The notes beneath the pieces are model-generated. The model did not search any database, was not told where the DNA came from, and saw only the letters and a program-made list of their open reading frames with translations. From the IMG/VR virus record IMGVR_UViG_2690316142_000006: a DNA stretch of 19,374 nt. One strand, 5' to 3'. Below, piece after piece: positions 9,918-12,349 of this stretch. The translations under genes and the position numbers were made by a program. How positions within the stretch are numbered: position 1 is the first letter of the stretch; each line of letters begins with the position of its first letter. The stretch comes from a virus. Taxonomy: Duplodnaviria > Heunggongvirae > Uroviricota > Caudoviricetes.

Positions 9918-10244
9918 ATGGCAGTAAAGATTTCAGGTGTACTGAAAGATGGGGCGGGTAAACCTGTCGTAAATTGTGCGATTGAACTGCGGGCCAGAAG
10001 AACCAGTCCGACCGTTGTGGCACACGTTGTTGCCACTTGCGTGACGGACAATAACGGTGCTTATGTGATTGAGGCTGAGCCGGGGTATTACGAGGTTGCG
10101 CTTCACTGTAACGGCTGGCAGCCAACCCGTGTCGGGGATATTGATGTGGCACCGACTGATGCACCGGGGACACTGAACGCGTTTCTGAATGCACCAAAGG
10201 ATGGTGATTTACGTCCGGAGGTGATGAAGTGTCAGCGCCAGTGA
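9918..10244 (+). pseudogene. stf: Side tail fibre (stf) 5' fragment, interrupted after about 109 codons by an IS21-family element
   Basis: [12 protein letters not shown]... is homologous to the N-terminus of the full stf at 14926 but a diverged allele. The ORF stops at TGA 10242-10244 where the IS terminal sequence begins. The track ORF start at 9876 lies inside the lom terminator hairpin, so 9918 is preferred. Confidence 0.75.
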
Positions 10245-10330
10245 TATAAGACGGTAATTCGCCATTTGGATTGTCCGCTCCACCCAACATGTTGTTTCCT
10301 TAAGGTTCTCACACCAGAAAGGACATCAAC

Positions 10331-11503
10331 ATGCTGAGCAGAGAGGACTTTTACATGATAAAGCAAATGCGCCAGCAGGGCGCGTACATCGTCGATATTG
10401 CGACTCAGATTGGTTGCTCTGAACGGACGGTCAGACGCTACCTCAAATACCCTGAACCGCCAGCCAGAAAGACCCGCCACAAAATGGTTAAGCTGAAACC
10501 GTTTATGGATTACATCGACATGCGCCTGGCAGAGAATGTCTGGAATAGCGAGGTTATCTTCGCGGAGATTAAGGCAATGGGTTATACGGGCGGACGTTCC
10601 ATGCTGCGTTACTACATCCAGCCCAAACGTAAAATGCGTCCGTCAAAAAGAACAGTTCGCTTCGAAACTCAGCCTGGATACCAGCTCCAGCATGACTGGG
10701 GCGAAGTTGAGGTGGAGGTTGCCGGGCAACGGTGCAAAGTTAACTTTGCGGTTAATACGCTGGGGTTCTCCCGCAGCTTCCATGTCTTCGCCGCACCAAA
10801 ACAGGATGCTGAGCATACCTACGAATCACTGGTTCGCGCCTTCCGCTACTTCGGTGGTTGTGTGAAAACGGTGCTGGTTGATAACCAGAAGGCTGCGGTG
10901 CTGAAGAATAACAACGGGAAAGTCGTGTTCAACTCCGGATTCCTGTTGCTGGCTGACCACTATAACTTCCTGCCACGGGCATGCCGTCCACGCAGGGCCA
11001 GAACAAAAGGTAAGGTTGAGCGGATGGTGAAATACCTCAAGGAGAACTTCTTCGTCCGGTACCGCAGGTTCGACAGCTTCACTCATGTCAATCAACAACT
11101 GGAGCAATGGATAGCCGATGTGGCTGACAAACGGGAGCTTCGCCAGTTCAAAGAAACGCCGGAACAGCGCTTCGCGCTGGAGCAGGAACATCTGCAGCCG
11201 TTACCGGATACAGACTTCGATACCAGTTACTTCGATATCCGCCATGTGTCCTGGGACAGCTATATCGAGGTTGGTGGTAATCGTTACAGCGTTCCCGAAG
11301 CGCTGTGTGGTCAGCCGGTATCGATACGAATATCGCTGGATGACGAGTTGCGGATCTACAGTAATGAGAAACTGGTGGCCTCACATCGCCTCTGTTCAGC
11401 ATCGTCTGGCTGGCAGACAGTGCCGGAGCATCACGCCCCGCTCTGGCAGCAGGTCAGTCAGGTGGAACATCGACCACTGAGTGCCTATGAGGAGCTGTTG
11501 TGA
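10331..11503 (+). CDS. istA: IS21-family transposase IstA (390 aa)
   Basis: N-terminal helix-turn-helix ([22 protein letters not shown]) and DDE-type catalytic core (QLQHDWGEV... ...[10 protein letters not shown]... ...[15 protein letters not shown]). Alternative start at 10355. Confidence 0.9.
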
Positions 11504-12300
11504 TGCATGAACTGGAAGTCCTGCTGAGTCGCCTGAAAATGGAGCATCTGAGTTATCACGTTGAAAGCCTGCTGGAACAGGCAGCTAAAAAAGAGCTGAA
11601 CTACCGGGAGTTCCTGTGCATGGCGCTACAGCAGGAATGGAACGGCAGGCATCAGCGCGGTATGGAGTCCAGGCTGAAGCAGGCTCGTCTGCCGTGGGTC
11701 AAAACGCTGGAGCAGTTCGACTTTACCTTCCAGCCGGGCATCGACCGTAAGGTTGTCCGGGAACTGGCTGGTCTGGCGTTCGTGGAGCGCAGCGAAAACG
11801 TGATCCTGCTGGGCCCTCCTGGTGTCGGAAAAACTCATCTGGCCATAGCTCTTGGCGTGAAAGCGGTGGATGCGGGACATCGGGTACTGTTTATGCCACT
11901 GGACAGACTGATCGCGACACTGATGAAAGCGAAACAGGAAAACCGGCTGGAGCGTCAGCTACAGCAACTGAGTTATGCCCGGGTGTTGATCCTGGATGAA
12001 ATAGGCTATCTGCCGATGAACAGAGAGGAAGCCAGTCTGTTCTTCCGGCTACTGAACCGTCGATATGAAAAAGCGAGCATCATACTGACGTCAAACAAAG
12101 GGTTCGCAGACTGGGGAGAAATGTTCGGAGATCACGTACTGGCAACAGCGATCCTGGATCGGCTGCTACATCACTCAACCACGCTGAATATCAAAGGAGA
12201 GAGTTACCGGTTAAAAGAGAAACGTAAAGCTGGAGTGCTGACCAAAAACACAACGCCAATCAGTGATGATGAAATGGTGGAAAGCGGACAGCATCAGTAA
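11500..12300 (+). CDS. istB: IS21-family ATP-binding helper protein IstB (AAA+ / DnaC-like)
   Basis: Walker [16 protein letters not shown] and Walker [10 protein letters not shown]. Probable ATG at 11503 overlaps the istA stop (tgATG). Confidence 0.9.
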
Positions 12301-12349
12301 CGAAAGTATTTAGCGGGCATGAAAATGGCAAATAACGGTCAAACATCGT

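Follow-up and report, generated by a model that had tools for sequence, protein, structure and literature searches.

The side-tail-fibre gene (stf) of a lambdoid prophage in Shigella sonnei is interrupted by an IS21 element between codons 104 and 105, and this insertion is common to S. sonnei genomes generally, not peculiar to the strain in which it is described here. In the stretch of DNA analysed the element is printed uninterrupted and runs into a gap, but in every one of the long assemblies compared it is split by IS600 and has lost its 3' part, and the intact-looking copy is very probably a product of short-read assembly. The window, i.e., the whole stretch of 19,374 nucleotides, is the entire record CXBN01000105.1 (assembly GCA_001251235.1), a short-read scaffold of a S. 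sonnei draft genome. CXBN01 is listed as strain ShIB2013, of phylogenetic group IIIc, from the collection of Holt et al. 2012 (PMC5447701), for which Hawkey et al. give a mean read length of 59 nt (PMC7373316), so that reads of about 59 nt underlie the window. As a reference for the locus we used 11 long assemblies, S. sonnei FORC_011 (CP010829.1, L005; locus at 1857819-1878145) and ten others (L013 to L022); lineage is known for only one of the 11, FORC_011, likewise listed under group IIIc (PMC5447701). Each break in scaffold CXBN01000105.1 falls at an IS. The first 32 nt are the terminal 32 nt of an IS600, adjoining the 3' end of the tape-measure gene, and the last 35 nt (19340-19374) we take to be the left inverted repeat of IS1. 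The features of the locus are collected in Table 1.

Table 1. Features at and around the interrupted stf gene (window coordinates)
Feature	Position	Strand	Evidence
lom, 199 aa, gene upstream of stf	9255..9854	+	PF06316, E 4e-129
stf 5' fragment, codons 1-104 of a 470-codon allele	9918..10229	+	PF08400 and alignment to the intact EIEC allele
Target-site duplication, predicted as GAAG or TGAAG (left copy only)	10225..10229		Inferred from duplications around identical copies
IS21 element, 2120 of 2130 bp	10230..12349	+	2120 bp without a mismatch to copies labelled "IS21-like element IS21 family"
Left terminal inverted repeat TGTCAGCGCCA	10230..10240	+	10 of 11 bases match the right partner TGTCAACGCCA, which is outside the window
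IS-encoded tail of the truncated stf ORF: CQRQ (codons 105-108) and TGA 10242-10244	10230..10244	+	Translation; opening 15 nt of all IS21 copies compared
istA, 390-aa transposase, second in-frame ATG at codon 9	10331..11503	+	NF033546, Pfam, structure 8b4h
Site of IS600 (1264 bp, reverse, 3-bp duplication GTT) in 11 of 11 long assemblies, none printed in the window	10657..10658		istA codon 109
Site at which IS21 ends at a 5'-truncated IS600 in long assemblies	11327..11328		IS21 base 1098, istA codon 333
istB, 265- or 266-aa helper AAA+ ATPase	11500/11503..12300	+	NF038214, PF01695, structure 8q3w
Scaffold gap, 11 N	12350..12360		N run after base 12349
Second placement of a 2461-bp block (3' part of J and 5' part of lom, another prophage)	12361..14821	+	100% self-match to 5382-7842

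The interrupted gene has the N-terminal domain and the location of a lambdoid Stf. It starts at ATG 9918, in agreement with the CDS start called by PGAP, lies downstream of J and lom in a lambda-like order, and its 108-aa product matches the prophage tail-fibre N-terminal domain of Pfam (PF08400, E 1e-36) over profile positions 1-104 of 134. Of the complete coding sequence with its C-terminal receptor-binding part, only 104 of 470 codons are present. These are 99.7% identical to the intact stf of the EIEC strain CFSAN029787 (L001), in which the 470-codon gene is followed by a DUF4376 gene, and the match ends exactly at 10229. In this allele the target without insertion reads GGTGATGAAG directly followed by CGCTTTGAGG, the uninterrupted stretch over the insertion point being GGTGATGAAGCGCTTTGAGG, and the break thus falls between codons 104 and 105. 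The truncated product consists of 104 Stf residues followed by the four IS-encoded residues CQRQ; it retains 104 of the ca. 134 residues of the N-terminal domain and has neither the fibre shaft nor the receptor-binding part. A first-pass annotation of this DNA had left stf open for 109 codons, with its stop exactly at the left repeat of the IS, but the element starts at 10230 and the TGA lies 12 nt inside it. The end of the element hence differs from the one then assumed (10230, not 10242), and stf is nevertheless not intact across it, since the intact allele can be aligned only up to 10229. The rest of this allele, reported missing after the IS, was not found anywhere in the window, and it is partly deleted in complete genomes too. 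The statement that this prophage copy has no functional side tail fibre is supported, and the IS21 that disrupts stf has the same orientation as the gene.

Three copies of the element in different flanks (L002 to L004) provided its full length and both ends, as they all start with TGTCAGCGCCAG and finish with CATCGTGGCGTTGACA, giving 2130 bp, within the ca. 2 to 2.5 kb expected of the IS21 family. The copy in the window begins with TGTCAGCGCC at 10230, the same start as in identical copies with other flanks, and its last 10 bp (GGCGTTGACA) are missing because they fall in the 11-N gap; the initial span of 10242-12349 thus starts 12 nt late and stops 10 bp short of the right end. No mismatch to L002 or L003 was found along the 2120 bp. 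When the IS region was compared with complete E. coli genomes, 867 records had at least 80% query cover, and the best of them were 100% identical, starting at window positions 10226-10230. The ends are of the TG...CA type, the left one being TGTCAGCGCCA at 10230 and the right one ...TGGCGTTGACA, seen only in identical full copies (L002 to L004 and L023). Identical copies elsewhere are flanked by target duplications of 4 bp (TATA and GCGC) or 5 bp (GATAT). For the insertion in stf, the window lacks the right flank, which complete genomes have lost by deletion, and the duplication (GAAG or TGAAG) is a prediction.

Both genes of the element were assigned to the IS21 family. IstA, a DDE transposase with a helix-turn-helix and an rve core and the first gene of the element, scored 284 bits with NCBIfam NF033546 (cutoff 160), contained the Pfam domains rve, HTH_23 and Mu-transpos_C_2, and matched the structure of the IS5376 IstA (8b4h) with an E value of 2e-82 over residues 1-388. 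Directly downstream, the AAA+ helper IstB reached 302 bits with NF038214 (NCBIfam, cutoff 200), 2.5e-90 with PF01695 (IstB_IS21) and 5e-68 with the IS5376 IstB structure (8q3w), and its sequence has the Walker A (GPPGVGKT) and Walker B (LILDE) motifs. The TGA of istA (11501-11503) overlaps the ATG of istB at 11503 (GTGATG). The early recognition of an IS21-family element with IstA and IstB was therefore correct, both proteins passing the curated NCBIfam cutoffs, with PF01695 and the IS5376 structure matches in agreement. IS21, the name used by ISfinder, is the prototype of the family and was first described on plasmid R68.45. By sequence, the element appears to be IS21, or at least cannot be told apart from the element to which PGAP and ISSaga give that name; the designation follows those labels and not an alignment to R68.45. 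In S. sonnei 53G, ISSaga likewise names IS21 as one of 12 ISs (Hawkey et al., PMC7373316). Nothing at this locus departs from the known behaviour of the IS21 family.

The stf-IS21 junction was found in hundreds of public assemblies and in all 11 long assemblies examined, including FORC_011. As a gene call, the truncated Stf appears with 108 aa in eight contigs, the FORC_011 chromosome among them, and with 122 aa (from ATG 9876) in 543 collection blocks, of which 13 include contigs larger than 1 Mb. In a collection of complete E. coli genomes without S. sonnei no genome spans the junction, and the best matches (99.7%) end at 10229. Many public S. sonnei genomes already contain and annotate the junction. 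In seven other drafts of this accession series the sequence breaks off 31 or 53 nt into IS21 from its left end, which is the signature of a multi-copy repeat in k-mer assembly.

The long assemblies have the same left junction in the same prophage as the window, with 99.8% identity over the flanking tail genes, but a different structure beyond it. In 11 out of 11 the order is stf codons 1-104, IS21 bases 1-428, IS600, IS21 bases 424-1098, a truncated IS600, the 3' end of stf and the DUF4376 gene, followed by chromosomal ABC-transporter genes, whereas the window prints an uninterrupted IS21 and then a gap. The first IS600 is complete and the second is 87 bp short at one end, and the two copies, within or adjoining the IS21 remnant, are oppositely oriented (L005, CP010829.1, 10741-13854). 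The junction between the truncated IS600 and stf reads ...CACCTCA followed by GCCGTCTGGCG, with stf resuming ca. 433 bp downstream of the insertion point. These assemblies have lost istB, the right end of IS21 and ca. 433 bp of stf by deletion, so this IS21 copy is dead there. Downstream of stf and the DUF4376 gene, S. sonnei has an ABC metal-transporter cluster of four genes (ZnuA/ABC-3 type, sit-like; L005 15300-18749). In EIEC CFSAN029787, the homologous prophage carries a frameshifted ipaHe at that downstream position (L001 13225-14867).

The explanation that best accounts for both structures, and one we consider very likely, is an ancestral insertion of IS21 into stf with later decay by IS600, the element of the window being a consensus of other copies. 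Judging from assembled sequences and not from the reads of the strain, in all likelihood only the stretch from about 10230 to 10282, and at most to 10657, reflects the stf locus, and the remainder of the IS together with its adjacency to J would be products of assembly. One possible source is the virulence plasmid. The IS21 copy of the S. sonnei pINV (L023, CP109776.1, 1501-4897), which adjoins ipaH9.8 with the 4-bp duplication GCGC, is 100% identical to the window over 10385-12349 and is broken by IS600 at another point, after IS21 base 158 (window 10387). With reads of 59 nt, the broken copies of stf and pINV together give a seamless, full-length IS21 consensus. Both the window and the pINV copy have G at 10857, where ten of the 11 long assemblies, FORC_011 included, have A in their stf copy. 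One long draft contig (L022) has G at the equivalent position, yet also the IS600 interruption, and we dropped this base as a locus-specific marker and consider it supportive only. We infer that ShIB2013 would have the nested IS600 structure too and that the intact-looking element would come from gap filling. The earlier impression of complete, functional-looking IstA and IstB is thus true of the printed sequence but very probably not of the locus, for which the 11 long assemblies have an IS600-split istA and no istB.

The first alternative takes the scaffold as printed, with an intact and potentially active IS21 simply inserted in the stf of this strain and the rest of the gene beyond the gap, on another contig. 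This seems unlikely, since every long assembly with the junction has the IS600-broken copy, including FORC_011 of the same group IIIc, and the uninterrupted print itself comes from 59-nt reads, too short to tie 2.1 kb of a multi-copy IS to any one place, in a scaffold with demonstrable false joins. IstA and IstB are indeed full length and identical to annotated proteins, but the G at 10857 is that of the pINV copy and not of the copy at the stf locus. S. sonnei has ongoing IS activity and differences among lineages (PMC12795559), and somewhere an earlier form of the locus might in principle have persisted. We regard as quite improbable that ShIB2013 truly carries an uninterrupted, transposition-competent IS21 in stf, be it the ancestral state or the result of gene-conversion repair from another IS21; if true, it would supply a dated intermediate for the stepwise decay of the prophage by ISs.

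The N gap and the J sequence after the IS, both noticed at first pass, are indeed there (12350-12360, with J-like sequence beyond), and the IS coincides with a contig break, as had been proposed. This J sequence is an exact second copy of 5382-7842, and the join is therefore a scaffolding artefact. The repeated block of 2461 bp comes from a second prophage, with a J ca. 90% identical; one copy (5382-7842) ends at a single N (7843) and the other (12361-14821) starts at the 11-N gap. Placement of the block also produced a truncated Lom ORF of 167 aa at 7366-7869. A genuine adjacency, with the stf fragment and the IS fused to the middle of J of another prophage by homologous or IS21-mediated rearrangement, would fit the heavy rearrangement of Shigella genomes at IS copies, and the gap of 11 N is near the 10 missing IS bases. 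However, the J sequence starts mid-gene with no IS end adjoining, the block behind the gap is a base-perfect copy that begins exactly at the 11-N gap and whose twin ends exactly at the single N, and the complete genomes continue into IS600, the 3' end of stf, the DUF4376 gene and the ABC-transporter genes, without J. Given the exact duplication and a locus without J in complete genomes, we reject such a fusion as highly improbable. That the stf-IS21 junction is itself chimeric and stf intact in the genome might be suspected from the other false joins of the scaffold, but the same junction occurs in complete and long-read chromosomes and in hundreds of independent assemblies and falls exactly at the canonical TG end of the IS, so that the chance of this is close to nil and the idea is effectively refuted.

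Further assembly artefacts lie upstream. Window positions 1-5334 and 7844-10229 derive from a single prophage, as two pieces that overlap and align colinearly with FORC_011 at 99.8% identity. The J ORF of the window (2757-7295) has 1512 aa, compared to 1159 aa in the uninterrupted long assemblies, and consists of two J sequences joined out of register via an 11-nt overlap, TGAAATCACGC (5324-5334). A look-up of the exact 1512-aa protein retrieved a single record, CXBN01000105.1, and among complete E. coli genomes the join at 5324-5334 is colinear in none. We also considered that an in-frame repeat of 1041 bp within J (4283-5334 and 5324-6375, 91% identical) might be a real duplication and rejected this, because of the 11-bp overlap at the join, the lack of a colinear complete genome and the 1159-aa J of complete S. 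sonnei. Other drafts of the accession series carry different J chimeras, e.g., a 1919-aa ORF in L006. GapFiller merges sequences on overlaps of at least 10 nt. CXBN01000105.1 was presumably made with a pipeline of the SSPACE and GapFiller type, and the authors of one pipeline combining both describe the tools as greedy and able to make false joins (PMC5320598). The differences from FORC_011 are tightly clustered (4456-4464, 4625-4631, 7992-7996 and 9293-9296), which, in a clonal species, suggests mixed reads from paralogous prophage genes and not true SNPs.

The prophage that carries the insertion survives only as a remnant. IS600 cuts its tape-measure gene at window base 32, and in FORC_011 the stretch from the Q antiterminator gene to the tape-measure fragment contains nothing but IS elements. 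It cannot form particles, and therefore the loss of stf has no consequence for phage production. The second prophage of the window has, within 14920-18590, an apparently intact stf of 1029 aa, with a short internal repeat (16321-16407 and 16453-16539, 77% identical), and a tfa of 193 aa. Downstream of tfa, a very AT-rich and ORF-poor region (18600-19330) is 99.5% conserved in many E. coli genomes, with nothing annotated in it.

A likely history can be proposed from these data. IS21, with its DDE transposase and AAA+ helper, would have transposed into the stf of the lambdoid prophage in an ancestor of present-day S. sonnei. By analogy with IS5376, and from what is established for IS21, IstA would cut at the TG/CA ends and IstB deliver the complex to the target DNA, leaving a duplication of 4 to 5 bp. 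Insertion after codon 104, with the element oriented like the gene, would have left a stub of 108 residues, a simple insertional inactivation. IS600 would have inserted next into istA, and the second, truncated IS600 probably marks the deletion of the remaining IS21 and ca. 433 bp of stf, while the head, lysis and most tail genes of the prophage would have been lost through IS-associated deletion. During assembly, the true junction (to about 10282) would have been extended through a generic IS21 consensus from other copies, e.g., that of pINV, and the scaffolder would then have bridged the N gap to the J/lom block of a different prophage, used twice.

Prophage genes in Shigella are routinely disrupted by ISs, and IS21 is itself a well-characterised element. 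Complete S. sonnei genomes average ca. 480 to 500 IS copies (PMC12795559), and the insertion in stf is one of several hundred such events, with little biological importance. The case has more value as a caution, because in short-read scaffolds of IS-rich genomes neither an intact-looking IS beside a gap nor the sequence after the gap is a reliable guide to the structure of the locus. CXBN01000105.1 illustrates the point, with one block placed twice, a 1512-aa chimeric J and an intact IS21 that is most likely a consensus of other copies.

Among known systems, the closest to the element is IS21 as described, with which the window copy shares the 390-aa istA with an ATG at codon 9 and the overlapping 265-aa istB; the TG...CA ends, the inverted repeat matching at 10 of 11 bases, the 4- to 5-bp target duplications and the length of 2130 bp are shared by identical full copies. 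It differs at the stf locus, where the window has no last 10 bp and complete genomes hold a dead remnant. IS5376 of Geobacillus stearothermophilus (structures 8b4h, 8q4d, 8q3w and 5bq5) is homologous over the full length of both IstA and IstB, but it is a distant member of the family, from another host and well under 50% identical to the proteins of the window. Its mechanism, a DDE transposase brought to the target DNA by an AAA+ helper, would by analogy be transferable. As for the prophage, the first-pass annotation had drawn a parallel with phage lambda PaPa, in which a lambdoid side-tail-fibre gene is likewise inactivated and the J-dependent tail tip genes are kept. The parallel was overstated. 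Lambda PaPa is a viable phage whose stf reportedly carries a 1-bp frameshift, whereas here an IS insertion was followed by deletion, in a remnant unable to make particles.
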